From contig LFTO01000005.1 in the NCBI GenBank assembly GCA_001513335.1, positions 1 to 47,510 of the forward strand: 47,510 nt of DNA, written 5' to 3'. Source of the DNA: Clostridiales bacterium DTU086. GTDB lineage: Bacteria; Bacillota; DTU086. The stretch's first letter is position 1. Each line of letters opens with the position of its first letter. The notes under the pieces were generated by a model, which worked only from the letters and a program-made list of their open reading frames with translations, was not told where the DNA came from and ran no database searches. Positions 9,274-34,046 of the stretch are shown in pieces. The position numbers and the translations under genes are program-made.

Positions 9274-9829
9274 CCCGTGTATTATGAGGGAGGGCTTGTT
9301 TCCCGCAAGTCCTTCACCGCTTTGCCGCCGCTAAAAGCATGGGAGCTTTTCCACACAGCAGAATAATATCTGACGACAACCCGGCACAATTTCCAAAAAG
9401 ACAAATAAACCGCCCAAAAAAGGCGGTTCCAACCAGAGTGTTTTCGTGTCTTTCGCGAACGACTAATGAACACAGGCACACAGCTCTTGGCAAAGCGCAG
9501 GGAAAAACAGGGAGGCACAGGCAGGACGCCTGGGCCAGCGGGGGTGGAGACAAGACTTATCGCTTTTTGGGCGGCCCGGTTTGGACCTAAAGCTTTGCCT
9601 TAGAGATGTCCTGTGTGAATTCCTGGAGTGAGCGAAAGGCGGATGAAACATGCCCCGGCGTTTCGCTCAGGATGGCGTGCAAGCTTGTCCGTAGCGGAAT
9701 AATACATTCGGCCTTTTACCCATATAATTGTCAAATTGGAACCGGCACTTACGTTCTGCTGGTGCCGTTCCAGTTTGCGCCAAGAGCTGTTGCCTCAAGC
9801 TTACAAGTCGTTCGCAAAAGGTAAGAAAG
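9274..9829. repeat. Composite structured intergenic repeat, locus 1
   Basis: Core 9458-9717 shares long blocks with 32118-32363 and 33797-34046 (e.g. ATGAACACAGGCACACAGCTCTTGGCAAAGCGCAGGGAAAAAC with locus 4; GCTTTGCCTTAGAG, TCCTGTGTGAATTCC and CTTGTCCGTAGCGGA with both); degenerate unit at 9274-9365. Confidence 0.9.
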
Positions 9830-10945
9830 CTAAAACAGCTCTTCACTGGGCGTGTACTCAAGCCCCTGAGCATCAGCAACACCCTGAATAGTCAGTTTGC
9901 CTTTGTATACGTTAAGCCCCTTCCTCAGTGCACTGTTTTCCTGCATAGCCCTTTCCGCTCCCTTGTTTGCAATTTCAAGGATGTAAGGCAGAGTAGCGTT
10001 GGTCAGTGCAATGGTCGAGGTCCGGGGAACCGCCCCGGGCATATTGCCTACGGAGTAATGGACAACGCCATACTTGATATAATAGGGATTTTCCAGAGTC
10101 GTGCTCCGGTCAATTGTTTCAATGCAGCCCCCTTGGTCAACGGCAACATCTACCAGCACGGAACCCGGCTTCATGGATTTTACCATCTCCTCGGTAACCA
10201 CCTGCGGGGTCCTGGCACCGGGAATCAGTACAGCACCGATAACCAAATCGGCTTCCTTGACCGCTCTGCCAACGTTATAGCTGTTGGACATCAGGGTAAT
10301 TGCGCGGCCGTTAAAGAGATCATCTAGGTATGCCAGGCGGTCTCTGTTGATGTCGATAACTGTAACTTGGGCACCCATACCTACAGCCATCTTGGCAGCA
10401 TTGGTACCAACACTGCCGCCGCCGACAACTACAACTTTACCGGGCTCGACACCGGACACACCTCCAAGTAGAATCCCCCGGCCGCCGTTAGTCTTCTCCA
10501 ACAGGTGGGCACCAACCTGGATGGACATCCGACCGGCCACCTCACTCATAGGCAAAAGCAGGGGGAGAGACCCGTTTGGCAGCTGCACTGTTTCATACCC
10601 TAAAGCAACCACTTTGGCTGCCAGCAGAGCTTGTGTCTGGACAGGGTCCGGAGCCAGGTGAAGATAAGTAAATATTATCTGGTTTTCTTTTAAAAGACCA
10701 TATTCCTGTTCCAGTGGCTCTTTTACTTTGATAATCATCTCGGCCGCATCAAACACTTCCCCGGGAGTATCTAGAATCTCAGCCCCGGCTTCTATATATT
10801 CCGCGTCACTAAAGCTGCTGCCCAGACCCGCGGACTTTTCAACGTAACATGTGTGGCCGGCCCTGACCAGGGTGTCAATACCCGCAGGAGTCAAACCTAC
10901 CCGGTTTTCCTGGGGTTTTATCTCTTTTGTCACTCCAATGATCAA
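9830..10945 (-). CDS. ald: Alanine dehydrogenase
   Basis: [43 protein letters not shown] and [11 protein letters not shown] motifs. Confidence 0.96.
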
Positions 10946-11225
10946 TGTCTTCTCCTCCCCGTCTCTAATATATCAGAGTCTGAAACGATGTTTGCTTAAG
11001 CAGTATTATAAACCGGGTTAACACCCAAAGAAAACAATTAATAACCAATATTATAAATAAACCTCTTTAAATAAACAATTGGATATAATAGCCTCTGTTG
11101 CCCTGCAATCTGCCGCTTTTCAAGTATATATTACACTGTAGTTTTTCCCGAGGAGCTCACCGTATCATCAGGATATATTTCCAATAACCATAAACCGGCA
11201 CTTGTCTACATCCAAATTCCCCTGC

Positions 11226-11714
11226 CTAGCTTCTTACAGGGAGAATAACCTTTTCTAGTCTCCCCTTGGTAATCCTAATCAGATCCACCGGCGACAGTTC
11301 AATTGAAGATCCAATTTTCCCGGCGCTGATAATAAGGTTTTCCAACAATAAACAGGACTCATCAACTACTGTCTCATATTTCCTCTTCATTCCTATCGGC
11401 GAACAGCCGCCCCGGACATATCCGGTGACTTTATTGATTTCATTAACTTTTACCATTTCAAGAGACTTTTCATTTACCACTCTGGCTGCCGCTTTTAAGT
11501 CCAGTTCTGCCGCAACGGGAATTACGAAAACATAATAGGTTTTGCTTGCTCCCCGGCAAACAAGAGTTTTATAAACATATTCAACAGGTTTTCCAATTTT
11601 CTCTGCAGCCGATATTCCGTCAGAAAAACCATTTTTACCCTCATAATGATGTGTTGTATATGAAATGCCTGCCTTATCAAGGATACGCATTGCATTTGTT
11701 TTAGTATCAGCCAA
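11226..11714 (-). CDS. ybaK: Cys-tRNA(Pro) deacylase YbaK
   Basis: KTNAMRILD, VYKTL, TGYVRGGCSPIG and SAGKIG motifs. Confidence 0.93.
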   Translation of the reverse strand: MADTKTNAMRILDKAGISYTTHHYEGKNGFSDGISAAEKIGKPVEYVYKTLVCRGASKTYYVFVIPVAAELDLKAAARVVNEKSLEMVKVNEINKVTGYVRGGCSPIGMKRKYETVVDESCLLLENLIISAGKIGSSIELSPVDLIRITKGRLEKVILPVRS

Positions 11715-11840
11715 AATTTATCACACCTTTTGTTCGTTCTAAGATGTCAACAGCAACAGCACAAATTATTATTATATCTGTTTTTGTATTCCCGGGCTAT
11801 TACTCCCTCTGTTAACGAGTTAGCTGGCGACCCTCTGCAC

Positions 11841-11867
11841 AAAAAGCCGGGGGAAAATACCCGGCTT
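11841..11867 (-). terminator. Intrinsic terminator after dusB
   Basis: AAGCCGGG/CCCGGCTT stem followed by a U-tract on the minus strand. Confidence 0.7.
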
Positions 11868-11926
11868 GACTGACTGTGCAAAGTATTAGTTTTAGGTTTG
11901 TTCTTTTTCCCTGAACTGTACTTCCC

Positions 11927-12889
11927 TTAGTATTCTTCACGGAGGTTTTCCAAAAGCTGCATCAAATCCTCCAGATTGTCAATCTTGTTAATTCTGTCCC
12001 GGAGGCGTGCTGCCCCCCGGAGTCCTTTGGTATACCAGGCCAGGTGCTTGCGCATTTCAAGTAAGCCTCTCTTTTCCCCCTTAAAGCGCACCAGAAGATG
12101 CAGGTGCTCTATAGCTGTTTCCAGCTTCTCCTGCCACCCGGGATCCGGAAGTACGCGTCCCTCTTCAATATAAGCAATGGTCCGGGAAAAAATCCAGGGA
12201 TTGCCCATTGAAGCACGGGCAATCATTACAGCATCGCACCCTGTAGTGTCCAGCATCCGCCGTGCGTCCTCCGGGCTTCGGATATCACCGTTCCCCACAA
12301 CAGGAATCTTCACTGCCTTCTTTACCTGTTCAATAATACCCCAGTCAGCACTGCCGGAGTAAAACTGGTCCCTCGTCCTCCCATGAACTGCAACAGCTGC
12401 TGCACCGGCTTCCTCTACTGCCAGAGCCAGCTCAACGGCGTTAACAGTATCCTCGTCCCAGCCTTTGCGCATTTTGACTGTAACAGGCACCTCTACCGCT
12501 TCTACAACTGCTTTTACAATTTCCGCCGCCAGAGGGACATCTCTCATTAAGGCTGAGCCCTCTCCGTTCTTGACTATCTTCGGTGTCGGGCAGCCCATAT
12601 TGATATCCACTACCGCAGCCCCCGTACCAACAGCTATTTTAGCCCCCTGAGCCATTATTCCCGGCTCACTGCCAAACAGCTGAACTGCAATAGGACCCTT
12701 CTCTTCCTCTAAGTTCAGGATTTCAAAAGTCTCCCTGTTTGAATATGTAAGTGCTTTGGCACTGGCCATCTCAGTTACAATAAGGCCGCAGCCCATTCTG
12801 TGGAGCAGAATGCGGAAAGCTTTGTCGGTAACCCCTGCCATGGGTGCGGCAAAAACCCTGTTTCTTGTTTCAACTGTACCGATCCGCAT
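11927..12889 (-). CDS. dusB: tRNA-dihydrouridine synthase B
   Basis: APMAG, QLFGS, NMGCP, HGRT and GNGDI motifs. Confidence 0.95.
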   Translation of the reverse strand: MRIGTVETRNRVFAAPMAGVTDKAFRILLHRMGCGLIVTEMASAKALTYSNRETFEILNLEEEKGPIAVQLFGSEPGIMAQGAKIAVGTGAAVVDINMGCPTPKIVKNGEGSALMRDVPLAAEIVKAVVEAVEVPVTVKMRKGWDEDTVNAVELALAVEEAGAAAVAVHGRTRDQFYSGSADWGIIEQVKKAVKIPVVGNGDIRSPEDARRMLDTTGCDAVMIARASMGNPWIFSRTIAYIEEGRVLPDPGWQEKLETAIEHLHLLVRFKGEKRGLLEMRKHLAWYTKGLRGAARLRDRINKIDNLEDLMQLLENLREEY

Positions 12890-12906
12890 TTAAATTACAG
12901 CCTCCG

Positions 12907-13677
12907 TTACTTGTTGCGATTATATATGATTCTTAACCCTTCCAGGGTGAGGTCTCCGTTGATCACATCAAATATTTTTACATGGGGACCAACAACCTCA
13001 GCCAGCCCTCCTGTAGCAATGGCCTTTGCACTGCACCCTAAATCATCACGTATCGCCTGGATTGCAAATTGTATTCCACCGATTACGGAATAATAAATAC
13101 CGGCCTGCATAGAGGTAACAGTGTTTTTCCCGATTGCCGAAGCGGGTTTTTTCAGTGCCACACGGGGAAGCTTGGCCGCTTTTTGAAATAAGGCCTCCAT
13201 GGAAATATTTATTCCGGGAGAAATTTGGCCCCCCAGGTACTCCCCTTGGGAAGATATAACATCAAAAGTAGTGGCGGTCCCAAAATCCACCACAATCGCA
13301 GGGCCGCCGTATAATTCATAGGCTGCAACAGTATTGGCTATCCTATCCGCACCGACTTCCCGGGGATTGTCTGTTTTTATAGGTATGCCGGTTTTTATTC
13401 CGGCACCCACTACCAGCGGTTCAGTGCCAAACAATCGGCGAATCATAGCCTGAAGAATTTGAGTGGCATTCGGAACAACAGAAGCTATTATTGCTCCTTT
13501 AATCCCTGAAGGGTTAACTTTAGCAAGGGAAAGAAAACTTCGGGTCATAATTTCATACTCATCAACAGTTTTTATGGTATGAGTACTCAATCTCCATGAA
13601 GCAACCAATTTGTCAGGTAAAAAAATTCCCAGAACAATATTCGTGTTGCCGATATCCACTACAAAAACCAAATTCAA
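12907..13677 (-). CDS. coaX: Type III pantothenate kinase
   Basis: DIGNT, VGADR, VDFGTATT and ATGG motifs. Confidence 0.96.
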   Translation of the reverse strand: MNLVFVVDIGNTNIVLGIFLPDKLVASWRLSTHTIKTVDEYEIMTRSFLSLAKVNPSGIKGAIIASVVPNATQILQAMIRRLFGTEPLVVGAGIKTGIPIKTDNPREVGADRIANTVAAYELYGGPAIVVDFGTATTFDVISSQGEYLGGQISPGINISMEALFQKAAKLPRVALKKPASAIGKNTVTSMQAGIYYSVIGGIQFAIQAIRDDLGCSAKAIATGGLAEVVGPHVKIFDVINGDLTLEGLRIIYNRNK

Positions 13678-13695
13678 TCACATCCTTTGGCATTT

Positions 13696-14667
13696 TTATG
13701 TCATCCCGGTAACGGTAACCTCCCCGGAGTAAAATACTTTAGTGCAGCCTTGATGGTCTCTAAGAAGCAAACCCCCTTCAGGGGTAATATCTTCCGCCAC
13801 TCCTGCAAAATACTTTTCCCCCATTTTTAAGACCACATTGCGGCCTAAAGTTAAGTTGTTTTGCCTCCACTGGTTCAGGATGGATGAAATTCCTTCACGG
13901 CAGTAATGGAAATAGTTTGCTTCTAACTGAGACAGCATTTCACGGACCAGGCTTTTTCTGTCAACGTTCTTTCCCAGGTACATCGCCAGAGTCCCCGCTC
14001 CGGAGGCTTCCTTTTCCAACTGTCTGAAATCAGAATTAACATTGAGACCGATTCCAATGATAATATAATTGACCTGGTCCACTTCACCTTTCATTTCCGT
14101 AAGGATTCCGCATATCTTTTTCCCTTCCAGGAAGATATCATTGGGCCACTTGATGAGAGGGACAAGTCCTGTCACCTTTTTTATGGCATTGACAACAGCT
14201 ACTGCCGCAACCAGGGTAATGCCCTGGACTTTGTGGGGAGGCACATCCGGCCTGAGAATCACGGACATCCAAATACCTCCCGCGGGAGAATGCCAGGACC
14301 TGTTCATACGCCCCCTCCCTTTCGTCTGCTGTTCCGCAATTACAACCGTCCCTTCAGGGGCACCTTCTTCAGCCAGCTTCTTGGCTGCGTTATTCGTGGA
14401 ATCTACCCTGTGGTAATGGCGGATTTTACATCCCAAAACCCTGGTACCCAATCCTTGCGATACTTCCGCGGGATAGAGAACATCAGGCACAGAAACCAAT
14501 TTATATCCTCGTTTGGGTACAGAATGGATAACGTACCCTTCGCTCCTCAGGGCTTCAATATGCTTCCATACTGCTGTTCTGCTAATTCCCAGAGCCAGGC
14601 TTATTTTTTCACCGGAAACATACTCCTTTCCGGCTGATGAAAGGAGAGAAAGAACCTTTTGTCTCAT
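13696..14667 (-). CDS. birA: Bifunctional biotin ligase/repressor BirA
   Basis: N-terminal HTH (SGEKIS...SRTAVWK), GRGRMNR, KWPND, KICGIL; ATG 14667 with GGGAGG RBS. Confidence 0.96.
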   Translation of the reverse strand: MRQKVLSLLSSAGKEYVSGEKISLALGISRTAVWKHIEALRSEGYVIHSVPKRGYKLVSVPDVLYPAEVSQGLGTRVLGCKIRHYHRVDSTNNAAKKLAEEGAPEGTVVIAEQQTKGRGRMNRSWHSPAGGIWMSVILRPDVPPHKVQGITLVAAVAVVNAIKKVTGLVPLIKWPNDIFLEGKKICGILTEMKGEVDQVNYIIIGIGLNVNSDFRQLEKEASGAGTLAMYLGKNVDRKSLVREMLSQLEANYFHYCREGISSILNQWRQNNLTLGRNVVLKMGEKYFAGVAEDITPEGGLLLRDHQGCTKVFYSGEVTVTGMT

Positions 14668-14824
14668 AGAACCTCCCAAAAATTAAAAGTTATATTCAAA
14701 CAGCACCTGTGAAAGAAACATATTTCCCCAATAGTCCTAGTAGAATCTCCCGGATAGCCTATTCATTATCCCAAAGTAACAGATTAAAATAATAGCAAAA
14801 CCTTCTTCCCAAAAGGAAGTTGCA

Positions 14825-15205
14825 ATGGATACCATTCATGTAAGAAATTCCAATAACAAAATAATTGCAAATAACGTTGCGATAGCTGCAAGGTTTTTCC
14901 AACGGGCACGGGGGCTTTTACTTTCCAAGCCTTTAAAGGAAGGGGCAGGGCTGTGGATTAACCCCTGCAATGCAGTTCATACTTTTTTTATGACCTATTC
15001 CATTGATGTAATTTTCCTCGACAAGAATATGCGCATCACCAACATTCTGGAGAATATGTCTCCCTGGCGAGTGAGTCCCATAGAAAAAAACGCTCAAAGC
15101 GTCCTTGAACTGCCCGCCGGAACAGCAAAGAAGCACTCTGTTACCATAGGAGAACAACTTGTTTTTCAACTTCCTGACACCAACAAAAAACAACAGCAGG
15201 GGTGA
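14825..15205 (+). CDS. DUF192-family protein
   Basis: RARGLL, VHTFFM, IDVIFLD and VLELPAG motifs. Confidence 0.88.
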   Translation: MDTIHVRNSNNKIIANNVAIAARFFQRARGLLLSKPLKEGAGLWINPCNAVHTFFMTYSIDVIFLDKNMRITNILENMSPWRVSPIEKNAQSVLELPAGTAKKHSVTIGEQLVFQLPDTNKKQQQG

Positions 15206-15296
15206 AAGGTTTCCAGGTTAAACCCCTTCCATAAACGCATTCCTGGTTGTGTCACTTTGAAAATGGTTGCAATTTATAGGCTTGTTTGCGCCTTTA

Positions 15297-15644
15297 TCAT
15301 TCAAGAGGAATATTGCCTTCTCCCACATGGACAACCACCGGAGAATGTTCTTTCAATTCCTCGGCACTAAAATGACCGTAAGACATGATAATTATTTTAT
15401 CGCCCGGTTCCGCAAGCCTGGCGGCGGCACCGTTAACACAGATCTCTCCCTGCCTCTCGGATTCAATTACGTAGGTCACGAAGCGGCTGCCATTGTTGGT
15501 ATTTACCACGTGGACTTTTTCGTAGGGGAAGATATCCGCCGCCTGGAGGAGTCTCCGGTCAACTGTCAGGCTCCCGACATAATCCACATTCGTTTCAGTC
15601 ACCTTTGCCCTGTGGATTTTGCTCTTAAGCATTTCTCTCAGCAA
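15297..15644 (-). CDS. panD: Aspartate 1-decarboxylase
   Basis: KSKIHRA, YVG-SLT self-cleavage site, TYVI and NGAAAR. Confidence 0.96.
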   Translation of the reverse strand: MLREMLKSKIHRAKVTETNVDYVGSLTVDRRLLQAADIFPYEKVHVVNTNNGSRFVTYVIESERQGEICVNGAAARLAEPGDKIIIMSYGHFSAEELKEHSPVVVHVGEGNIPLE

Positions 15645-15659
15645 CTATATCCCTCCTCA

Positions 15660-16520
15660 TTATGTCCGCCTTTGAGGTGATTCAAAAATGAAATTATCGA
15701 TTAACCTTGTCTTCCCAATCCAAACAGCAACGGCTACCAGTACCCTCCCTTTGATTTCCTCTATGTCTTTCAAAGTCACGGCATCTTTCACCACAAGATA
15801 ATCTATACAGGCCAGGGGTTCCCTCTTGATAACTGCTGAAATTTTTTCTGCTACCAGCGCCGCCCTTTTCTCTCCCTGTTCCAGAAGAGCTCTGCCGGCC
15901 TCGAGGCTTTTGGGGATAACAAGGGCCGCTTCTCTTTCCCTTTTACTCAGGTAGGTATTCCGGGAACTCATAGCCAGACCGTCATCTTCACGTATAATGG
16001 GCATTACCCTTATTTCAACGGGGAAGTTCAAGTCCTCAACCATTCTTTGAACCACCAGTGCCTGCTGGGCATCCTTCTGTCCAAAATATGCCCGGTTGGG
16101 AAGAATAATATTGAACAGCTTGGATACTACCGTGGTCACCCCCCGGAAGTGACCGGGTCTGGAAGCCCCGCACATTTCATCTGTGAGACCGTAAACATTC
16201 ACAAATGTACTGAAATTTTCCGGATACATTTCTCCCGGCGCAGGAACGAATAAAATGTCTACACCGGCTTTTTCAGCCAGATCCTTGTCCCTTTCCAGAT
16301 CCCGGGGATACTCATCAAAATCTTCATTTTCCCCAAACTGTGTAGGGTTGACAAACAGGCTCACAACGGTAAAATCGTTTTCAGCCCTGCTGCCCTCCAT
16401 TAAACTGAGGTGTCCCCGGTGAAAAAATCCCATTGTCGGGACGCACCCGATCGTGGCACCGGTCCTTTTTATTTCCAGACTGGTTTTCTGCATTTCCTGA
16501 ATACTTGTTATTACCTGCAT
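15660..16520 (-). CDS. panC: Pantothenate synthetase
   Basis: VPTMGFFHRGH, FVNPTQF, RPGHF, FGQKD, AMSSRN and RLIDN. Confidence 0.97.
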   Translation of the reverse strand: MQVITSIQEMQKTSLEIKRTGATIGCVPTMGFFHRGHLSLMEGSRAENDFTVVSLFVNPTQFGENEDFDEYPRDLERDKDLAEKAGVDILFVPAPGEMYPENFSTFVNVYGLTDEMCGASRPGHFRGVTTVVSKLFNIILPNRAYFGQKDAQQALVVQRMVEDLNFPVEIRVMPIIREDDGLAMSSRNTYLSKREREAALVIPKSLEAGRALLEQGEKRAALVAEKISAVIKREPLACIDYLVVKDAVTLKDIEEIKGRVLVAVAVWIGKTRLIDNFIFESPQRRT

Positions 16521-16566
16521 CTGTCAGACTCTCCTTCTACCAAAAAACAGCTAAAAAATAATTGCC

Positions 16567-17427
16567 TCAGCTAAGGAGGCTTTTTAATTCTTCAAGTTGA
16601 TCTTTCTTTAGCTTTCCCTTTTCCCAGGCAATCTTTAATGTTCGCCTGCCTAAAGCCTTATAAAGGTCCAGTATATCCGGTGCGTTTTCCTCCAGGCTTT
16701 TTATGTGCCTTGCTACAGTACCAATATCTCCCCGGCTTATCGGCCCCGTAAGTGCACCTGCAGGTTTCATAACCCTCAAGTTCCCCAGAGTACCTTCAAT
16801 AAGAGGCAGGAGGGCTGGAACGAGACAATCCTTTTCCACCCCGGATAAATCAAGAAGTTCCAAAGCAGCATCGAAAAGAGTTACCAGGTAGTTGGAAGCC
16901 ACACAGGCAGCAGCATGATAGAGCACCTTATCCTCTGCATTTAAGACAAAAAATTCTGCCCCAATCCGGGAAACCATAATTTTTCCTATTTTTACCGCTT
17001 CAGGATGGCCTTCCAGGCTGAAAACACACAAAGGCAGGTTTACCAGCGCCTCCTCAACTGAGGCGCAGCTCTGCAGGGGGTGCATGCTCATTACATATGC
17101 CCCACAATCCGCTGCAGGCTGGAGGATTTTAGAGGTATGGGCACCGCTCATATGAACCACAAACTGCCCAGGCCCCAGACATTTGCTTTTGCTTAATCCA
17201 AGAACCACCTCTTTTACAGCATCGTCCGGTGTAGTAATAAACAGTACATCACAGCTGGCAGCTAATTTTGCAGCATCGCTGTAAAATTTGCCTCCAACTT
17301 CTTTTGTGGCCCGGTAGGCGGAAGTCTCCGACCGGCTGAAATAACCCGCAATCTCGTAACCGCAGGCACCTAAAAGGGAACCCATAGTCTTTCCCATTAC
17401 TCCTGCTCCAATGAAACCAATTCGCAT
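16567..17427 (-). CDS. panG: Rossmann-like + DUF2520 protein, probable PanG-type ketopantoate reductase
   Basis: GAGVMG, TPDD, HMSGA, MHPLQS, YHAAACVASNY and LTGPISRGD; first gene of the pan operon. Confidence 0.8.
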   Translation of the reverse strand: MRIGFIGAGVMGKTMGSLLGACGYEIAGYFSRSETSAYRATKEVGGKFYSDAAKLAASCDVLFITTPDDAVKEVVLGLSKSKCLGPGQFVVHMSGAHTSKILQPAADCGAYVMSMHPLQSCASVEEALVNLPLCVFSLEGHPEAVKIGKIMVSRIGAEFFVLNAEDKVLYHAAACVASNYLVTLFDAALELLDLSGVEKDCLVPALLPLIEGTLGNLRVMKPAGALTGPISRGDIGTVARHIKSLEENAPDILDLYKALGRRTLKIAWEKGKLKKDQLEELKSLLS

Positions 17428-17444
17428 AAGCAGCCCCCCAGGAT

Positions 17445-17515
17445 AAAAAAAACCCGGCTTAAACCGGAAGGTATCCTATTATTCCTTCCGTCTCAGTCCA
17501 AAAGGATCCAAGCGG
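17445..17515 (-). ncRNA. pan RNA motif-like cis-regulatory leader with terminator/antiterminator
   Basis: Minus strand CCGCTTGGATCC-TTTT-GGACTGAGACGG resembles the pan motif hairpin as recalled; followed by a CGGAAGG/CCTTCCG antiterminator and a TCCGGT-TTAA-GCCGGG-T8 terminator just before the panG RBS. Confidence 0.75.
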
Positions 17516-17531
17516 GTAAGCGTGTAAGAAT

Positions 17532-17560
17532 ATAGTAGCAGAACAGGATATTCCTGTCCA
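17532..17560 (-). promoter_or_regulatory. Sigma-A promoter of the pan operon
   Basis: TGGACA-N17-TACTAT with extended -10 TG; palindrome ACAGGA-TAT-TCCTGT at 17543-17557. Confidence 0.6.
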
Positions 17561-17659
17561 GTTTACCTGGCAATTTAACCCTTCAAACTCAACAATCTCC
17601 CGTGCCGGGGCTTGAATGCTTTAAGGAAAGGCTGTAAAAAACGACAAATTAAAACCTGC

Positions 17660-19699: not shown

Positions 19700-19726
19700 C
19701 GCAAGTTTCCTCCCAAGAAATCAAAA

Positions 19727-19995
19727 AACGGAACAATACATGCGGGCTTTTTTCTCCGTTGTACATTTCAAACTCCTAAAGACCGCATGTGTTGTGGAGC
19801 GGGACTTGTTTTGCTCAGCCGTCGCCGGCTTTGCCGGCGGTAACGGCGTGCAAGCTTGTCCGTAGCGGAGCAATACATGCGGGCTTTTGCCACCGCTTAC
19901 ATGTCAGACTCCTGGAGGCCGCATGTATTGTGGAACGAGACTTGTTTCCCGGAGTGTCTGCTCCGCCGTCGGAAATTGCGTGGGAGCTTGTCCAA
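19727..19995. repeat. Composite repeat, locus 2: tandem ~137-bp hairpin units
   Basis: CAATACATGCGGGCTTTT at 19734 and 19871; CCGCATGT at 19783 and 19919; unit similar to 32402-32510. Confidence 0.88.
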
Positions 19996-20079
19996 CATGA
20001 AATAACCGCCCACAAAGCACCGCCGTCCATTCAAGCAGCTCTTTTCCCAATGTGAATATTTTAGCACTGCCCTGCCGGA

Positions 20080-23057: not shown

Positions 23058-23170
23058 AAATGTCCCTCCTCTCAACAAGACAACGGAAATGAAAAACGGA
23101 GCAAGTTTTTTCCCATGAATACTTATTGTAACATAAGGCTGAAATAAACTCAAACACCCGCATTTTCCCC

Positions 23171-27427: not shown

Positions 27428-27462
27428 TGTGTACACCTACCTGGCTCAAGTGTTTGCTTCCC

Positions 27463-27561
27463 ATTATAGACAAGCAACCCAAAAATTTTTGTCAGGTTTG
27501 GTTTTATTGCTTTGAGAAACTTTCGACAAATACACGACAAAACCTAAAGTCCAGTATGACA
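27463..27561 (-). promoter_or_regulatory. Spo0A-dependent spoIIE promoter
   Basis: CTGACA(27495-27490)-N21-TATAAT(27468-27463); perfect 0A box TGTCGAA at 27528-27522 and weaker boxes near 27533 and 27555. Confidence 0.7.
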
Positions 27562-27726
27562 GCTCCGAAAAGGGTTTCCGCCGCAACACAATAGCGGGAT
27601 TATTGAAGTAGTTGTTACAGAAAAAAAAAGTAAAATTTCTAAAACAAATTAATTCCTTAAGGTCCTCAAAGATGTTGACAACCGCTGGATTCGGTTCTTC
27701 TGCCAGCCATTCTGGTGGTTACAGGC

Positions 27727-27763
27727 AAAAAAAATCCCCGTACTTGTAATAAGTACGAGGATT
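27727..27763 (-). terminator. Terminator of the tRNA operon
   Basis: AATCCTCGTACTT-ATTAC-AAGTACGGGGATT stem plus U-tract. Confidence 0.85.
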
Positions 27764-27765
27764 AG

Positions 27766-27840
27766 TGGTGACCCGTAGGGGATTTGAACCCCTGTAACCG
27801 GCGTGAAAGGCCGGTGTCTTAACCACTTGACCAACGGGCC
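27766..27840 (-). tRNA. tRNA-Glu (UUC)
   Basis: GGCCCGTTGGTCAAGTGG...CCGGC-CT-TTC-AC-GCCGG...GGTTCAAATCC...CACCA cloverleaf. Confidence 0.97.
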
Positions 27841-27867
27841 TTTTTGTCCAAATACACCCAAAAACTA

Positions 27868-27944
27868 TGGTAGCGGTGGTTGGACTTGAACCAACGACGC
27901 TACGGGTATGAACCGTATGCTCTAGCCACCTGAGCTACACCGCC
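27868..27944 (-). tRNA. tRNA-Met (CAU), elongator type
   Basis: GGCGGTGTAGCTCAG...TACGG-TT-CAT-AC-CCGTA...CCGCTACCA; resembles the Bacillus elongator Met tRNA. Confidence 0.93.
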
Positions 27945-27949
27945 ATAAA

Positions 27950-28025
<76 letters not shown>

Positions 28026-28063
28026 TCAAAAGATAAATATTCATTTTTGTCGTGCATTATTAA

Positions 28064-28091
28064 ATTATACGGATATATAAACAAATGTCAA
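28064..28091 (-). promoter_or_regulatory. Sigma-A promoter of the tRNA operon
   Basis: TTGACA-N16-TATAAT. Confidence 0.85.
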
Positions 28092-28099
28092 GGGGGTAA

Positions 28100-28540
28100 T
28101 CAACTTAACATCAGCCTGGCTCCTAAGGCGAGAAATATCAAACCGGCTAATTTCATGAAGGTAAAGGGCACTTTTTCCAGTCCAAACAGGCCAAATTGAT
28201 CAATCAGCATGGCTGTTGACACCTGCCCCACGATAATAGCAGTTGTAGCCAGGGCAACTCCTACTTTGGGAATGCTGGCAGCCACTCCGTAAATAATCAG
28301 CACACTGATAATGCCTCCCAAATAGGCATACCAGGGAACCTCCATCAATTTACCAAGATTTCCTTTCCCAAACCCAAACAGCACAATCAACCCTGCCATA
28401 GCGCTCCCTATAATATGCACCAACAATGTTGCCTCAATCTGCCCCACATACTTGCCCAGCACGGCATTCAATGACCCCTGTACAGCCATGGCTATACCAG
28501 CCGTTAAGGCAAAGGACATTGCTAACCAATCTAAAGTCAT
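28100..28540 (-). CDS. DMT-superfamily YdcZ/DUF606 membrane protein
   Basis: AVQGSLN, PWYAYLGG, GQ and IDQFGLFG; ATG 28540 with GGGAGGA RBS. Confidence 0.88.
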   Translation of the reverse strand: MTLDWLAMSFALTAGIAMAVQGSLNAVLGKYVGQIEATLLVHIIGSAMAGLIVLFGFGKGNLGKLMEVPWYAYLGGIISVLIIYGVAASIPKVGVALATTAIIVGQVSTAMLIDQFGLFGLEKVPFTFMKLAGLIFLALGARLMLS

Positions 28541-28729
28541 TTTTTTCCTCCCAAAGTTCAGATTTTTGTCCATGTAACATAAATTGTTGCATTTTGACAT
28601 CATTGAATATTCTTGCACCTACCAACCTCGAATATGGTGGAAATATTAACCTTAGAGTAACAGGTATAAACCTTCCCGACCTTTGCCAATATATAAGAGA
28701 AAAAAGAAACAGATAAGGAATGAGGCCCC

Positions 28730-29683
28730 TTGAATTACCGGTTTTTAAAATTTGTTATTATTACAGCTTTTGTTTTTTTTATTGCTATAACCCCTCAAGT
28801 TCACGGGTTTCCCGCCCCCTACGGTGGATGCACTGCTACAGACCGTACTCTCTTTCTCAATGAACCCCCGTTAACAGGAGATGATGTTCTTGAACTCCAG
28901 GAACGGCTTTCGGAACTGGGATATTATAATGGAAAGCTTAGCGGGGTTTTTGACGAAAAAACATGTGAAGCAGTGAAAAAAATTCAAAAAGACTCCAATA
29001 TGAATCCTACGGGAGAAGTTGGCCCGGCAACATGGGAAATACTTTCAAAGGGAATTGAGGCTCCCCCTGTAACCACAAATACTTCCAAAAAGGAAAAACC
29101 TGAAGGGTATATGAGCATCTTGATTGATACCAATAAAAAAACCCTAACCCTATTGTGTGACGGTGAACCTTTCAAAACCTTCCCCTGTGCAGTAGGGAAG
29201 TTCTCAACGCCGTCCCCTATCGGTGAATGGACAATTGTTCACAAAGGAGGTAAGTGGGGTGGAGGATTTGGCGACCGCTGGATGGGTCTCAACGTTCCCT
29301 GGGGAGTATACGGTATTCACGGAACAAATAAACCCTATTCCATAGGTACTAACGCCTCTCACGGATGCATCAGGATGTTCAATGAACACGTCAGAGATCT
29401 GTACCAATACGTTGAGATCGGCACACCTGTAAAAATTGTCGGAGATCCAGCAATGCCTCCCGGTGCAAAGTACAGGAAGTCAATGCGCAAGGATGCTACC
29501 GGTCCTGATGTTGTCCAGGTACAGCTGCGTTTGAAAGAAAAGGGTTTTCTCTGCGGACGTGCAGATGGGCGTTTCGGTACAGCAACAGAACTGGCGGTCA
29601 AGTTTTTTCAGGTACGATCAGGGCTTAAAGATACCGGCATCGTAGAGGAGGAAACTTACTCGGCTCTGGGCATTGAACTCTAA
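28730..29683 (+). CDS. Secreted L,D-transpeptidase (YkuD domain) flanked by two peptidoglycan-binding domains
   Basis: Signal peptide; GDDVLELQERL and GPDVVQVQLRL PG-binding repeats; GIHGT...SHGCIRM catalytic motif. Confidence 0.9.
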   Translation: MNYRFLKFVIITAFVFFIAITPQVHGFPAPYGGCTATDRTLFLNEPPLTGDDVLELQERLSELGYYNGKLSGVFDEKTCEAVKKIQKDSNMNPTGEVGPATWEILSKGIEAPPVTTNTSKKEKPEGYMSILIDTNKKTLTLLCDGEPFKTFPCAVGKFSTPSPIGEWTIVHKGGKWGGGFGDRWMGLNVPWGVYGIHGTNKPYSIGTNASHGCIRMFNEHVRDLYQYVEIGTPVKIVGDPAMPPGAKYRKSMRKDATGPDVVQVQLRLKEKGFLCGRADGRFGTATELAVKFFQVRSGLKDTGIVEEETYSALGIEL

Positions 29684-29803
29684 GGCCTCAACTTGAAGCC
29701 CTTACCGTTGCATAACTTGGGGATTTTACAGGCTTGTTGCCTGCCAGAATCCAAAATGCAAAATATACAGGCAAGAGATGCTTCCTTTGTTACAATTTGA
29801 AAC

Positions 29804-29835
29804 AAAAAATCCTCTTCCCTTAGAAGAGGATTTTT
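29804..29835. terminator. Bidirectional terminator between convergent genes
   Basis: AAAAAATCCTCTTC-CCTTA-GAAGAGGATTTTT. Confidence 0.85.
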
Positions 29836-29871
29836 CTACATTTGCCTTATAAAACTAAGATATGAAACCGA

Positions 29872-30258
29872 TTATATTCTTCCGGCGGCACGTCCCCCGC
29901 GTTTAGATTCGGTATTACGCCTTAGATCCTGCTGCCTTTCATCACTTTCTTTTAAAAACTTTGCCATTTTATCTTCAAAAGAAATTTCACGGCTTTTGCT
30001 TCGATTTTTGTTCCCTCTTGGGCTGGCATTCAATTGTTTAATAGAAAGGCCTATTTTCCCGTCGTCACCAATATTAATAACCTTAACCTTTACCTGCTGC
30101 TTCTCTTTCAAAAAATCATTTACATCCTTAACATAAGTATCCGCAACTTCAGAGATATGAATTAGTCCAGTAATACCGCCAGGCAGTTCAACAAAAGCAC
30201 CAAATTTGGTAATGCCGGTTACTACACCTTCTACAATATTACCCACTGCAAGGGACAT
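29872..30258 (-). CDS. yabR: S1 RNA-binding protein YabR
   Basis: GITKFGAFV, GLIHISE and SFEDKMAKFLKES; own promoter TTGACA(30326-30321)-N17-TATAAT(30303-30298). Confidence 0.92.
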   Translation of the reverse strand: MSLAVGNIVEGVVTGITKFGAFVELPGGITGLIHISEVADTYVKDVNDFLKEKQQVKVKVINIGDDGKIGLSIKQLNASPRGNKNRSKSREISFEDKMAKFLKESDERQQDLRRNTESKRGGRAAGRI

Positions 30259-30322
30259 GCTTTGAATACTCCTCCTAACACAATTAAAACTAAGGCTATT
30301 ATAGCTAATAGCTAGATTCCTG

Positions 30323-30700
30323 TCAATTACTAATGTCCCCCGAATTATTTCTGGTTAATACAAGATTTTCCCCGGGTTTCACCATACCCAACTGCTCCCT
30401 GGCAAGTTTTTCGATATATTCCCCGCTCTGTACCATCTCCATATCTTTCTGAAGCTGTTCCTGGTAGCTCAGCAGCTGCTGTTTCTCCTGTAAGTAAAAG
30501 TCTATTTCCCGGTCAAGCTGTACAATCGTCCAGTGAAGCTGGATTAAATTCCAAAATATGCAGAACACTACTGCAGCACATATCAGTGTTCCATATTTTA
30601 TCTTAATTAGTCTACCTTTTTTTGTCCGGTTTTTAATTGGAAGTTCAGTAACCGGGGTCAGTTTATTATTCATATCAAAAACGTGCTGGCTCCGCGGCAT
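30323..30700 (-). CDS. divIC: Septum formation initiator DivIC/FtsB
   Basis: Single TM, coiled coil, YIEKLAREQLGMVKPGE. Confidence 0.9.
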   Translation of the reverse strand: MPRSQHVFDMNNKLTPVTELPIKNRTKKGRLIKIKYGTLICAAVVFCIFWNLIQLHWTIVQLDREIDFYLQEKQQLLSYQEQLQKDMEMVQSGEYIEKLAREQLGMVKPGENLVLTRNNSGDISN

Positions 30701-30934
30701 TTACTCTTCAACCTCCTCTTCCGGATCACCAAAAATACCGAGAGTATCTCCAGGAAGAATGATCACTACCTGGTACCCCTTTGATTTTGCCCTGTTAAAA
30801 AGTGTAGCCACTGTACTGGGTGCCAGTTTTAGTTGTTTAGCAATTTCGGCAGTTGTCCGACCCATTTCTTTTAACACAACTACCTGGCGCTCCCTAAAGC
30901 TAAGTTTTTCTACTCCCCTGATTTCGATATTCAC
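30701..30934 (-). CDS. Small LuxR/sigma-70 region-4-like HTH protein
   Basis: LSFRERQVVVL..MGRTTAEIAKQLKLAPSTVATL; AGGAAGGA RBS; TAA-ATG coupling to divIC. Confidence 0.8.
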   Translation of the reverse strand: MNIEIRGVEKLSFRERQVVVLKEMGRTTAEIAKQLKLAPSTVATLFNRAKSKGYQVVIILPGDTLGIFGDPEEEVEE

Positions 30935-30952
30935 AGGACAATTCCTTCCTGG

Positions 30953-31098
30953 TTATCCACAAATTATACACATTCTGTGGACAAAAATTGTACATATTTC
31001 TACTCTAAGTTATTCGGCACCGTACTATGATTCCCTTTAGGGGCAGCGCCTAATTTTTTAATTTTTTTTTAACCCTTATCCACAATTTTTGTATAAAA
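30953..31098. promoter_or_regulatory. DnaA-box cluster with sigma-H-like promoter
   Basis: TTATCCACA 30953 and 31076, TTATACACA 30964, near-boxes at 30976, 30988 and 31090; minus strand AAAGGGAAT...GCCGAAT around 31012-31038. Confidence 0.75.
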
Positions 31099-31145
31099 CT
31101 TTTACAGGGTTCAAAGGGGAAAGCAAACAGTAAATACCGGCAGCC

Positions 31146-31622
31146 TTATTCTTTTGGCTTGGGAGGTCGTGAAAAAGATTTGAATAATTTTTTGAAAGGG
31201 AAAATCATTTTGAACAGCAGCAGGCTTAACAGATTGGCTGGAAAAATAAGCACCCTCTGCAGGAAGCTAAAGGGTATTCTAAAAACAGTCCACAACAAGG
31301 AGGCAGTTTTAAAAATTATATATAGCAGCATTTGAATCGGCTTCTGGATCATTCCGCTGATAAACCGGAAATACGCCAGCAGGCCCAACCCCATTCCAAA
31401 AAACACGTACAGCCTTACTTCACCCTGGTTTATATAGAGGAGCACAGCAAAAGCTAACGCAACGAGAAGCAGCCATACCAATAAGTCACCAATATTAGTA
31501 CTCATGGGCTTGAACCTGAAAGTGTTTCTCACCTCACGGTAAATATCAAAGGCTGCGCCCATGACTACACCAAAAAGGATCATGGCAACAAGGGTATAAA
31601 ACTGGACTTCGACAGGAATCAT
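31146..31622 (-). CDS. yabQ: Spore cortex protein YabQ
   Basis: G...G..FD.YR, DLLVW and N.GEVR.Y motifs; follows yabP. Confidence 0.9.
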   Translation of the reverse strand: MIPVEVQFYTLVAMILFGVVMGAAFDIYREVRNTFRFKPMSTNIGDLLVWLLLVALAFAVLLYINQGEVRLYVFFGMGLGLLAYFRFISGMIQKPIQMLLYIIFKTASLLWTVFRIPFSFLQRVLIFPANLLSLLLFKMIFPFKKLFKSFSRPPKPKE

Positions 31623-31641
31623 GAAGTCACCCCAAACAGCT

Positions 31642-31917
31642 TTACTTTAACATTTTCTTGAGAATCCCCTTACCTCTTCCTTTTACTCCTCTGCTTTCAG
31701 AATAAATGACCCCGGAAAAGCTGCCGGAAACAGACATGCTTCCCTGCTCAAGGTTGAGCTCTTCGATATTCAAGCCTTCTCCAAAGAGGTCCAGAAAACC
31801 ATAACTTGTTTCAACCGTTATTCTGCTGCTGTCAAAGTTGTGAACATGCAGCACCCCACCCTCAATTTCCAGGCGGTTTCTTTTCTCCAGGACAACCCGA
31901 TGGTTTTGCTCGCTCAT
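31642..31917 (-). CDS. yabP: Sporulation protein YabP
   Basis: ATG 31917; R..LEI.G.V..V..FD...I..ET..G.L...G..L....LNLE.G; sigma-E-like promoter ATA-N16-CATACATT (31962-31936). Confidence 0.9.
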   Translation of the reverse strand: MSEQNHRVVLEKRNRLEIEGGVLHVHNFDSSRITVETSYGFLDLFGEGLNIEELNLEQGSMSVSGSFSGVIYSESRGVKGRGKGILKKMLK

Positions 31918-32117
31918 AGCCTCACCCCTCACTAAAATGTATGTTGGCACAGCTTTGCATATAACAATTTAGCTTCTTGAAAACACAAGATTTCTCTACA
32001 GTTTCCCGGAGCAGATTTAAAAATAATTAAGCCCGTAACATGCGTACGGGCTCCATAATACATACTGGAGTGGTAATCTCACTATATTGAGCAACTTCTA
32101 TGCGCCCTGCAGGCGAA

Positions 32118-32510
32118 TAGTGAGCGGCGGCAAACAACCCTTGGCGAGACCGAAGGTCAAAGCCCGGAGGCACGAACAGGACGTGAGTGCCAGCCCCATT
32201 TGAGGCAGGATGCCGGTTATGGGGCGGTCCGGTTTTGACTGGAGCTTTGCCTTAGAGATATCCTGTGTGAATTCCTAGAGTGAGCGAAAGGCATGGGAAA
32301 CATGCCCCGGCGCTTCGCTCAAGATGGCGTGGGAACTTGTCCGTAGCGGAGAAGTATATGCGGAGTTTTGTCACAACTGTACATATTGGACTCAAAAAAG
32401 CACGCATGTGTTGCGGAGCGGGACTTGTTTTGCGCTAGCCTTACACGGCTTCCGCCGGCGGTAACGGCGTGCAGGCTTGTCCGTAGCGGAGCAATACATG
32501 CGGACTTTTT
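32118..32510. repeat. Composite repeat, locus 3
   Basis: Branched module 32118-32363 plus a CGCATGT...CAATACATGCGG unit at 32402-32503. Confidence 0.9.
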
Positions 32511-32627
32511 GCCAAACGTACACTAACCTTTGCTTAAAGATGCCTTGCACGAATTCAGGGAGTAGCAAAATCAGTTGAATTAATTTTATCAAGCCGCATA
32601 CGGGCTGGTTTTGCCTATCGTTTTACC

Positions 32628-33593
32628 TTAGTCCCAGGCCTTTTGAATTCTTACATCCCGAAAGAAATATTGTACAATTTCTGCGGCATTCTGCCCCTGC
32701 TCTGCCAGTGCCTTTGCTCCCCACTGGCTCATTCCCACTCCGTGGCCGAATCCCCGGCCTTCGGCTATTAACCTTCCCCCCTGCACTTCAAGTCTGCTCA
32801 ATAGAGTGGAACGCATTACTTCACTCCCCAGGGCAAGGCGTAAAGAAGGGCCGCTTAAAGTAACATTTCCAAGTTTGATTTTGGTAGCCCTTCCGGAGGG
32901 ACCTTTTTCAAGGATTTTTACCTGGTCAATGGCGCCCGGGTCATGTCCTGTCCAGTTCTGTATCTTTTGCCTTACTTCGCTGAGAGGAAATTCTGCTTTC
33001 CACGATTTATTTTCCGGCGGGCTAATCTCAAAACCAGGGTCAGAAACACTCTTTATATAAGGAGCTTTCTCCTGCCGGTAGTCAAGTCCTTCCACAGCGG
33101 AAGCGGCGGTTTTGCCTCCGGCATCAGCATGAAACCAACCGTTTATATACTTTCCGTCATAAGTAACGACCATACCCCGTGTTTGCTCTACGGCATCTTT
33201 TACTCTTTGGTTTATTCTATCTGCCGCATAAGCCTGAAACTCCTTCTCATCTGTAGAGGCATCAGTATTGTGTTCTTTTACGCCACCCTCTTCCATTTTC
33301 TTTAATGTAAATGTTCTGGCCAAAATCGCCTGGGCCGCCAGCGCCTCAGTAGGCCAGGAATTCTCCATTTCTCCGGCTACGACACCCTGGAGATAAGTCT
33401 CCAGTCTCATTTCCTCCACCTGGTCTTTTTCCTTGTTGTAAAGAGAAATTGTCGGTTCCTTTCCTTTACGGGGAAGGTCTTCGGGGCCCTCTCTCCCCGG
33501 ACGGGCAAAGGGACCGGCACACCCTACAAGAAATATTGCAACAGTTGCGAGAGATATTACTGTGACAAGGAAGTTGCTGCTTCTGATTCTCAT
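32628..33593 (-). CDS. SpoIID/LytB-family lytic transglycosylase, lipoprotein
   Basis: Lipobox LVGC; YLQGVVAGEM, EALAAQAILART, FQAY and GFGHGVGMSQWGA. Confidence 0.88.
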   Translation of the reverse strand: MRIRSSNFLVTVISLATVAIFLVGCAGPFARPGREGPEDLPRKGKEPTISLYNKEKDQVEEMRLETYLQGVVAGEMENSWPTEALAAQAILARTFTLKKMEEGGVKEHNTDASTDEKEFQAYAADRINQRVKDAVEQTRGMVVTYDGKYINGWFHADAGGKTAASAVEGLDYRQEKAPYIKSVSDPGFEISPPENKSWKAEFPLSEVRQKIQNWTGHDPGAIDQVKILEKGPSGRATKIKLGNVTLSGPSLRLALGSEVMRSTLLSRLEVQGGRLIAEGRGFGHGVGMSQWGAKALAEQGQNAAEIVQYFFRDVRIQKAWD

Positions 33594-33740
33594 TTTGTTC
33601 TACCTCCGTAAGCGGGCGCTTTTAGAGGTATTATTCCACAAGACACGTCTTTCAATGCGGCAGTTTAAGGCAAGCTCAAAAAAACCCCATCAAAAAAAAG
33701 GGGTTATAGACTGTCGAATAACCGATTAATTGTTTTTTTA

Positions 33741-34046
33741 CTTTACACGGCTTTTGCCGGAGGTAACGGCGCCTTTTCCCCATGCCTTTTTTGGCAAACG
33801 ACTAGATGAACACAGGCACACAGCTCTTGGCAAAGCGCAGGGAAAAACCGGGAGGCCCGGGCAGGACGCCCGGGTCAGCCCAATTTGAAACACGATGTTG
33901 ATTATTGGGCGGCTCGGTTTTGACTGGAGCTTTGCCTTAGAGCTGTCCTGTGTGAATTCCCGGAGTGAGCGAAAAGGCATGGGAAACATGCCTCGACACT
34001 TTCCTTGAATAGCGGGTGAGCTTGTCCGTAGCGGAGTAGTACATGG
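33741..34046. repeat. Composite repeat, locus 4
   Basis: 33797-34046 aligns with 9458-9712; 33741-33772 is a fragment of the tandem-unit module. Confidence 0.9.

Follow-up and report, generated by a model that had tools for sequence, protein, structure and literature searches.

What are the structured repeats that recur along this DNA, and how did they spread? The window, a 47,510-nucleotide stretch of contig LFTO01000005.1 of Clostridiales bacterium DTU086, contains four repeat loci (9274-9829, 19727-19995, 32118-32510, and 33741-34046). The original prediction described them as one unannotated family, built from shuffled modules A, B, and C in a single orientation, and suggested a structured RNA or single-stranded DNA element, REP/BIME-like or MITE-like, that is mobilized in trans. 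We confirmed the four loci at these coordinates, with every module on the + strand. An Rfam scan gave three RF01731 matches in the window and nhmmer gave nine module-C matches, all on the + strand, and direct-repeat families D1-D6 and D9 join the four loci. The genome-wide blastn and nhmmer searches showed that the family is represented far beyond chance, with the four loci giving 329 HSPs against the window's genome (G000). We consider it likely that two MITEs, moved in trans by an IS1182-type transposase, gave rise to the four loci, which would be old copies that are truncated and nested in one another.

The window has the following repeat features.

9261..9387, +, degenerate module-C hairpin body (model R1, 65.3 bits, E 2.3e-11; nhmmer 9275-9372)
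9408..9428, no strand assigned, terminator-like hairpin just upstream of the locus 1 A body (7-bp stem, -10.7 kcal/mol in an RNA fold of 9400-9435)
9464..9623, +, TwoAYGGAY body, module A (RF01731, 40.8 bits versus a gathering score of 43, full model 1-168)
9672..9715, +, C body, 3' half, downstream of A/B, with A nested in C (nhmmer model 66-109, E 2.9e-10; D2)
19729..19758, +, 3'-end fragment of a C body (repeat family D4)
19771..19894, +, C body close to the consensus, forming a long, irregular hairpin (R1, 132.5 bits)
19907..20021, +, degenerate C body that forms a tandem pair with the 19771..19894 copy (R1, 45.3 bits, E 1.2e-6)
32129..32290, +, A body without most of its 5' basal arm (blastn, 77-79% identity to loci 1 and 4)
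32320..32364, +, C body, 3' half, downstream of A/B (nhmmer model 62-106; D2)
32390..32515, +, full C body (R1, 118.2 bits)
32516..32560, +, candidate fragment similar to the 3' arm of the A basal stem (noted by visual inspection only)
33707..33722, +, worn motif resembling a left terminal inverted repeat (13/16 positions as in the repeat consensus)
33743..33771, +, fragment of the C central hairpin immediately 5' of A (D9, 90% identity to 32441-32469)
33803..33960, +, TwoAYGGAY body, the best copy in the window (RF01731, 62.9 bits versus a gathering score of 43)
34008..34052, +, C body, 3' half, downstream of A/B (nhmmer model 65-109; D2)
43231..43294, +, 5' fragment of a C body, absent from the original prediction (nhmmer model 1-77, E 1.7e-6; D5)

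The modules do recur as had been described, but module B is not independent, and what looked like shuffling is nesting. The 5' arm of B is the 3' strand of an approximately 18-bp extension of the basal stem of A, and this extension covaries. Module B is thus mostly the 3' strand of a longer A basal stem and no module of its own. Module A is placed within C, 3' of the central hairpin of C, and the reverse nesting, with C inside hairpin 2 of A, occurs elsewhere in the window's genome. The region from 33741 to 34060 forms one long fold (-141 kcal/mol, z -6.2).

Judged by its model match, module A belongs to a family already described in Rfam, TwoAYGGAY (RF01731). The copy at 33803..33960 exceeds the gathering score of 43 bits, whereas the other two window copies fall below it; one of these, 32129..32290, is a partial match (32163-32233, 35.2 bits, model 43-115), and the other, 9464..9623, can be aligned with 14 other copies of the window's genome. 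That genome has 16 matches at an E value of ≤0.01, and 10 of them are over the gathering score. For module A, the claim of an unannotated element is not supported, a match to a described Rfam family being what the original prediction said would remove novelty. The likeness to the published family extends over the full-length model, with a long basal stem leading to two hairpins with GGA loops (PMC2864571). As described for the family, module A is multicopy, differs in copy number from genome to genome, and is found together with other repeats, and an elongated basal stem has been noted for Bacillota (10.64898/2026.09.22.753630). The two-hairpin architecture is present here, but the loops in the window's genome are one base shorter than the RF01731 consensus motif; the copies in G003 have canonical loops. 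A second difference is that the body here is flanked by IS1182-type ends and hairpin duplications and occurs nested with another body; the terms MITE, inverted repeat, target site, and IS1182 do not appear in the main text of 10.64898/2026.09.22.753630. TwoAYGGAY occurs in 8 of 61 sampled genomes. The copies in G051 have other ends and direct repeats of about 8 bp, so the TwoAYGGAY body can be associated with more than one kind of end.

Module C is a hairpin of approximately 110 nucleotides with no match in Rfam. The window's 2.1-Mb genome carries 49 copies by covariance model R1 and 68 by nhmmer (E < 1e-3), and 42 of the 68 nhmmer matches are near full length. Model R1 also found C in four other genomes (G041, G061, G073, and G062), at 1 to 21 copies each. 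Its distribution is patchy (2/61 and 3/41 sampled genomes), and none of three genomes of the same family has it. Since G041 and G061 have C without an RF01731 match and G001 and G003 have RF01731 without C, the proposal of a single modular family did not hold. A and C are distinct bodies, each of which can occur without the other.

The base-paired structure of both bodies is supported by covariation. The compensatory base pairs first listed for these copies can be read in the sequence, and the claim that the copies covary was borne out quantitatively. Among 41 module-C sequences with 37 pairs, pairing holds in 88.7% of cells, compared to 34 to 45% in slid controls; 19 pairs change on both sides. 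In module A, the 37 pairs given by RNAalifold for 32 sequences of three genomes are formed in 96.0% of cells, compared to 40 to 49% in slid controls. Changes on both sides of a pair number 103 cells for C versus a shuffled mean of 43.8 (0/500 shuffles as high) and 87 cells for A versus 29.7 (0/300 shuffles as high), although these shuffle controls overstate independence, because the copies are kin by descent. The covariation could partly reflect subfamily descent instead of independent compensation.

Covariation of this kind might instead reflect selection on RNA folding. If so, the repeats would be multicopy functional small RNA genes whose spread is secondary, with TwoAYGGAY a putative CsrA decoy and C another structured RNA or a terminator cassette. 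TwoAYGGAY has been proposed to be a CsrA-binding small RNA (PMC4333381; 10.64898/2026.09.22.753630). Consistent with this proposal, GGA is present in both terminal loops of the window's A copies, and all five genomes tested have CsrA genes, including the window's own (88.4 bits). The C body at 19771..19894 folds better on the + strand (-61.6 kcal/mol, z -4.4) than on the - strand (-50.8 kcal/mol, z -2.6), and the C pairs include 104 G.T pairs versus 49 A.C pairs. A 436-nucleotide RNA-library contig is identical to 33897-34332. However, one conserved column supplies 35 of the 104 G.T pairs, and the remaining 69 versus 49 is a weak strand signal. The RNA-library contigs have low depth, give no information on strand or ends, and could derive from DNA carryover. 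Moreover, 51 of the 68 C matches are antisense to neighboring genes, G041 and G061 have CsrA or C without TwoAYGGAY, and inverted-repeat ends with hairpin duplications explain the copy number with no need for an RNA function. We regard small RNA function as improbable as the main cause of the repeats, but as an added layer it is compatible with the MITE explanation.

Short, abundant, intergenic imperfect palindromes in which arm pairing is kept by compensatory change are also characteristic of REPIN/REP and of ERIC/Correia-type hairpin MITEs. The elements here share these features, C being an imperfect hairpin that is abundant and intergenic, which raised the possibility of REP/REPIN elements that a RAYT-type Y1 tyrosine transposase would move in the form of single-stranded DNA hairpins. 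The window's genome has one RAYT-like Y1 protein (NF047646, 38.5 bits, a fragment), and G041, which also has C, has a Y1 homologue at 77 bits versus a cutoff of 80 for NF047646. REP arrays have been reported downstream of TwoAYGGAY in Pseudomonas fluorescens SBW25 (10.64898/2026.09.22.753630). However, the Y1 gene has a different motif of its own on either side, an inverted 14-nucleotide repeat with six occurrences in the genome, and the C model has no match in the Y1 loci of G000 and G041. The Y1 family and C are not codistributed, since the family is present in 20 of 61 genomes and 18 of these 20 lack C. The family was not found in G001 to G003, yet G001 and G003 have fresh TwoAYGGAY insertions. 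The structured C strand is mostly (51/68) on the G-poor strand, which is not the strand expected for Y1 activity on the lagging-strand template. We therefore rejected a REP/REPIN identity with a RAYT as very unlikely, and the suggestion of REP/BIME-like or single-stranded DNA mobilization was not supported.

Inverted-repeat ends with target duplications are a hallmark of DDE transposition and not of Y1 elements, and it is such ends that the fresher copies in other genomes have. There, the C and TwoAYGGAY bodies share imperfect 16-bp terminal inverted repeats with CAG...CTG termini, and most of the 34 copies examined have zero to three mismatches to the consensus at both ends. The end motif occurs 30 times in G001, 29 in G003, 17 in G061, and 7 each in G041 and G073, compared to 3, 0, 1, 2, and 3 occurrences, respectively, of a reversed control pattern. 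The copies are flanked by locus-specific direct duplications of 14 to 27 bp, each a terminator-like hairpin, and the gap between the direct repeats and the inverted repeats is mostly 0 to 5 nucleotides. Direct-repeat scores of at least 10 were found for 8 of 17 C copies versus 1 of 272 mismatched-flank controls and for 10 of 17 TwoAYGGAY copies in G001 and G003 versus 0 of 272 controls. Intact elements measure 136 to 142 bp for C and about 263 to 266 bp for A. The elements are thus small, noncoding, and multicopy, as MITEs are, and the 34 copies examined in relatives add the terminal inverted repeats and target site duplications of MITEs.

Structured elements of about 110 to 260 nucleotides in one orientation also have the general form of omega-RNA or bridge-RNA regions, and we considered whether they derive from the ends of IS200/IS605-type (TnpA/TnpB), IS110, or retroelement systems or are guide RNAs of such systems. 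Our searches found neither a TnpB-type domain nor a reverse transcriptase in the window's genome, the IS110-family genes of this genome (four matches) lie on contigs without C matches, and Rfam gave no match other than TwoAYGGAY. An origin from such systems is extremely unlikely. Copies that flank a RAYT/Y1 or reverse transcriptase gene had been proposed as a check, and none were found, the Y1 locus having no C match and the genome no reverse transcriptase.

A MITE should have an autonomous relative with the same ends and the same type of duplication, and G044 provides one. Its IS copies (1,592 to 1,596 bp) have the MITE ends and perfect 21- to 32-bp hairpin-folding duplications in 16 of 16 examined (controls, 0/240). 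On NF033551 (IS1182 family), the transposase of G044 reaches 464.9 bits versus a cutoff of 270, and its Pfam domains are DUF772 and DDE_Tnp_1_6. The intact IS also has a hairpin beside its right end. In G022, three of three IS copies have hairpin duplications of 16 to 21 bp, and the IS copies of G139 are located between the arms of palindromes. Neither C nor TwoAYGGAY was found in G044, the home of the best autonomous IS, and no single genome examined combines the IS, the MITEs, and an intact transposase. The interior of the presumed IS of G001 is unassembled, and its transposase is thus unseen. Shared ends, hairpin duplications, and autonomous IS copies are present in other genomes, and the window's genome has a decayed IS remnant. 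The shared ends and duplications suggest that IS1182-type transposases mobilize the C or A elements, and the predicted MITE-like mobilization in trans is supported by these findings.

The IS1182 family, including IS1272, is reported to target hairpins or terminators with little primary-sequence specificity (PMC4923244, PMC5678879), and the same targeting is apparent here, with autonomous elements that score as IS1182 family. The window differs in having nonautonomous derivatives only. IS1272 is reported to insert with loss of part of the hairpin and no duplication of the target (PMC4923244, PMC5678879), whereas the subgroup here duplicates the whole hairpin, so that the length of the duplication (21 to 32 bp) tracks the hairpin. 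Unusually long target duplications in Firmicutes are also described for the IS1202 family (27 bp for IS1202; 10.1101/2022.12.17.520857). However, that family has TGT-type termini, in contrast to CAG...CTG here, and the matching IS transposase is of the IS1182 type, with 77.6 bits on ISNCY_1 versus a cutoff of 325. We therefore rejected an IS1202 derivative.

These features suggest a model with two MITEs, one with the TwoAYGGAY body (about 264 bp intact) and one with the C hairpin body (about 140 bp intact), whose common 16-bp ends are also those of an IS1182 subgroup encoding a DDE transposase. The transposase, supplied in trans, would insert the element beside a terminator-like DNA hairpin and cut at both feet of the stem, so that the whole 14- to 32-bp hairpin would be duplicated on either side. 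Because the MITE bodies are themselves hairpins, they would become targets for one another, which would account for both the nesting and the seeming shuffling of modules. A need for a hairpin beside the right end of the element may be the reason why pairing persists in the bodies. The eroded copies of the window presumably arrived by the same route as the copies in other genomes; by analogy with those relatives, the hairpin at 9408..9428 may have served as an insertion target.

The window's own genome provides evidence both for and against this model. We found no intact IS1182 element with the MITE ends in G000, only an IS1182-family remnant with two stops (178.8 bits) and an end-motif match approximately 60 nucleotides before its ATG. 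The statement that no transposase is nearby holds for the families searched, with no match on contig C1 to Y1, TnpB-type, reverse transcriptase, IS110, or IS1182 proteins. Most G000 copies have no recognizable ends, and only four left-right end pairs occur genome-wide, at two to three mismatches. In the window, the end motif has two matches versus 1.03 expected, which is not significant alone, and the flanking direct repeats of the four loci score 6 to 8, within the range of shuffled flanks (maximum, 10 to 11). The one worn left-end-like motif, at 33707..33722, is preceded by a hairpin at 33683-33705 (-8.4 kcal/mol). Among related loci, neither the C model (40 loci) nor the Rfam TwoAYGGAY model (20 loci) had a match. 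Insertion into a conserved context is supported by the SpoIID-like gene, whose closest homologue from metagenomes (62% identity) has a yabO-spoIID spacer of 98 nucleotides with no element. Elsewhere in G000, one C copy on contig C69 has a flanking direct repeat of 20 nucleotides, and one TwoAYGGAY copy (C137:3590-3838) has kept both ends and an imperfect hairpin duplication.

The four repeat loci (9274-9829, 19727-19995, 32118-32510 and 33741-34046) were present with all their modules on the + strand, as borne out by the sequence, Rfam, repeat families and nhmmer. The host genome assembly (G000) is 2.10 Mb in 243 contigs and 98.8% complete, and DNA matching it was found in anaerobic-digester and biogas metagenomes. 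A blastn search of G000 with the four loci gave 329 HSPs. Contig ends hold many of the repeat copies, and because many G000 contigs end in elements, such elements break assemblies. The loci interrupt an ordinary row of housekeeping and sporulation genes (MazG, S4/yabO, a SpoIID-like gene, YabP and YabQ); these elements insert between genes of conserved operons. A relative with 62% identity has a yabO-spoIID spacer of 98 nt, followed by different genes, and the elements were not found in the nearest homologous locus. Among related metagenome loci, the best reached 62% protein identity and is too remote for strain-level empty sites. The window also carries the following features:

32628-33593, - strand: SpoIID-like gene, between yabO (S4 domain) and yabP, with repeat loci on either side
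17484-17560, - strand: pan motif RF01749, 37.2 bits, slightly above the gathering score of 36.2
29881-29975, - strand: c-di-GMP-I riboswitch-like match, 28.9 bits, under the gathering score of 35
27769-28025, - strand: cluster of three tRNA genes, where RNA-library contigs from many organisms accumulate

Module A is the Rfam motif TwoAYGGAY (RF01731), scoring 62.9 bits at 33803-33960; the other two A copies in the window scored 40.8 and 35.2 bits, under the cut-off of 43, and G000 has 16 matches at E ≤ 0.01. An alignment of 15 G000 copies showed that the basal stem of A extends about 18 bp past the Rfam model. Module B, which the original prediction treated as a separate stem, proved to be largely the 3′ strand of this extension plus an alternative partner. 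Module C, newly defined here, is an irregular hairpin of roughly 110 nt, for which nhmmer gave 68 matches in G000, 42 of them near full length. Neither B nor C had an Rfam match at E ≤ 1. The predicted repeat family is real, and half of it, TwoAYGGAY, was known before.

RNAalifold alone gave only the outer stem of C; for the inner helices, pairs were placed manually, guided by the fold of a single sequence, before being tested. Across the 41 sequences and 37 manually set pairs used for C, 88.7% of the cells were paired, versus 34 to 45% in slid controls, and both-side changes occurred in 19 pairs. For A, 96.0% of the cells were paired in 32 copies from G000 and two other genomes, G001 and G003. 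Cells with changes on both sides numbered 103 for C versus 43.8 in shuffled alignments (reached by 0 of 500 shuffles) and 87 for A versus 29.7 (0 of 300), with controls that overstate independence because the copies share descent. The + strand of C folds at -61.6 kcal/mol (z -4.4) versus -50.8 kcal/mol (z -2.6) for the - strand. The strand signal in the C pairs is weak (104 G.T versus 49 A.C, yet 35 of the G.T come from one fixed column). C lies on the G-poor strand, antisense to neighboring genes, in 51 of 68 matches, cases that are not independent. In an internal loop of C, two facing unpaired positions change together between lineages in an alignment of copies from G000 and four other genomes (G041, G061, G062 and G073). 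The two bases are T/T in the G000 and G041 copies as well as in two from G061, whereas the other five aligned G061 copies, like those of G073 and G062, have A/G. The joint change could reflect a non-Watson-Crick constraint or plain linkage by descent.

Among 61 sampled genomes, the covariance model of C found 49 matches in G000 and 5 in G041, and C was not found in three genomes of the same family; other genomes gave 19 to 21 matches in G061, 6 in G073 and 1 in G062. TwoAYGGAY was detected in 8 of the 61 genomes, G001 and G003 included, each having between 2 and 26 matches, and was not found in G041 or G061. A and C are thus two distinct bodies, which in G000 occur together and are nested in one another. 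A 21-mer scan of genome contigs returned one true match and one chance match. A pattern scan of viral contigs gave three matches, none confirmed by the model, and C had no blastn match in phage and plasmid collections.

The C copies of G061, G073, G041 and G062 are bounded by imperfect 16-bp inverted repeats and flanked by a locus-specific direct duplication, in itself a hairpin of terminator-like form. These ends and this type of duplication are shared by the TwoAYGGAY copies in G001 and G003. A direct-repeat score of at least 10 was reached by 8 of 17 C copies and 10 of 17 A copies, versus 1 of 272 and 0 of 272 mismatched-flank controls, respectively, and the duplications mostly abut the element ends directly. 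In these MITE-bearing genomes, the end motif was strongly overrepresented relative to a reversed control. Further end-motif matches in G003 and G061 were considered as insertion sequence (IS) copies and rejected as MITE ends or chance. In another genome, G051, the termini of TwoAYGGAY at loci L189 to L198 are different, and the direct repeats there, about 8 bp long, do not form hairpins; since these ends differ, transposon ends of more than one kind may carry the RNA-like body.

G000 carries a decayed IS1182-family transposase remnant with a matching end motif ahead of it. Using the conserved part of the remnant, we sought intact relatives in 101 genomes and found them. One genome, G044, has 31 copies of such an IS, whose transposase scored 464.9 bits on the IS1182 model. 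The 16 copies examined (L243, L249, L254 and L256 to L268) are 1,592 to 1,596 bp long, and all 16 have the same left and right ends as the MITEs and a perfect 21- to 32-bp duplication comprising exactly one hairpin (0 of 240 controls reached the threshold). Hairpin duplications of 16 to 21 bp flanked 3 of 3 copies in G022, and IS copies in G139 are located between palindrome arms. Duplication length tracks the hairpin, which implies that cleavage is positioned by DNA structure; these copies document an IS subgroup in which duplication length is set by the target structure. By comparison, IS1272, another IS1182-family element, is reported to insert at terminator hairpins without duplication (PMC4923244 and PMC5678879). 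In the intact IS, a hairpin abuts the right end, and the C body holds the equivalent position. At least six G001 contig ends (C3, C14, C21, C10, C18 and C26) stop about 88 nt inside IS ends; the IS is therefore multicopy there, with its interior unassembled and its transposase gene missing from the record. One other IS1182 copy, carried by contig C27 of G061, has unrelated ends and was rejected as a partner.

Mobilization by a RAYT was considered as a rival, and G000 does have one RAYT-like Y1 gene, split over contigs C4 (3-347, - strand) and C154 (1-513, + strand) with an exact 62-nt overlap. However, this gene is bracketed by its own inverted 14-nt motif, is unlinked to C and is poorly codistributed with it. 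The motif occurs six times in G000, once as a tandem pair on contig C161, and appears to be a minor REP-like family in its own right. TnpB-type and reverse transcriptase genes were not found in the G000 assembly, and its IS110-family genes (on C180, C31 and C153; one apparently intact, the others fragments) are unlinked to the repeats. An IS1202 lead, followed for its long duplications, was dropped because of the termini and the transposase family. The repeats may have an RNA role: there is GGA in the loops, the genome has CsrA, and there are weak RNA-library contigs. Four RNA-library runs yielded nothing beyond contigs of low depth, which leave parts of the loci uncovered and strand and transcript ends unreadable.

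The repeats are best explained as MITEs of IS1182 type that target hairpins and carry one of two bodies. TwoAYGGAY has been an orphan RNA motif without explanation since 2010. A 2026 preprint (10.64898/2026.09.22.753630) reports that the motif in Pseudomonadota is associated with repeats and has a copy number both high and variable, that its stem is elongated in Bacillota, and that its expansion is "mobile-element-like," with no mechanism given; the terms MITE, inverted repeat, target site and IS1182 are absent from the main text. Searches of the IS1182 literature for MITEs and for palindromes, terminators or direct repeats gave no description of these elements, although supplements may bear on novelty. 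We tentatively propose, as a plausible rather than a probable reading, that in these Bacillota at least, and possibly more widely, TwoAYGGAY is a MITE hairpin body and not a free-standing small RNA gene, its copy number varying through a structure-reading IS1182-type transposase. Such a transposase would read DNA structure, not sequence, and would cut at the base of the stem in any terminator-like hairpin, duplicating the hairpin. It may also require that a hairpin adjoin the right end of the element, which would keep the bodies paired by compensatory change and make the elements mutual targets. If so, every insertion would scatter a duplicated terminator and possibly a GGA-loop CsrA decoy as well. 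Common ends, hairpin-sized duplications and a matching IS1182-family transposase give TwoAYGGAY in Bacillota a concrete, testable mechanism, with C as a second, undescribed body riding the common ends. Such elements can pass for conserved structured RNAs in covariation screens.

The copies in the window are old. Direct-repeat tests detected no flanking duplication at the four loci, a clear duplication is absent for most copies across G000, and one worn left-end-like motif is left in the window (33707-33722), with a hairpin adjoining it. At the last locus and on contigs C241 and C210, A lies inside C, after the central hairpin of C, and elsewhere in G000 the nesting is reversed, with C inside hairpin 2 of A. 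Such nesting would be expected of a hairpin-seeking element acting on hairpin-bodied elements.
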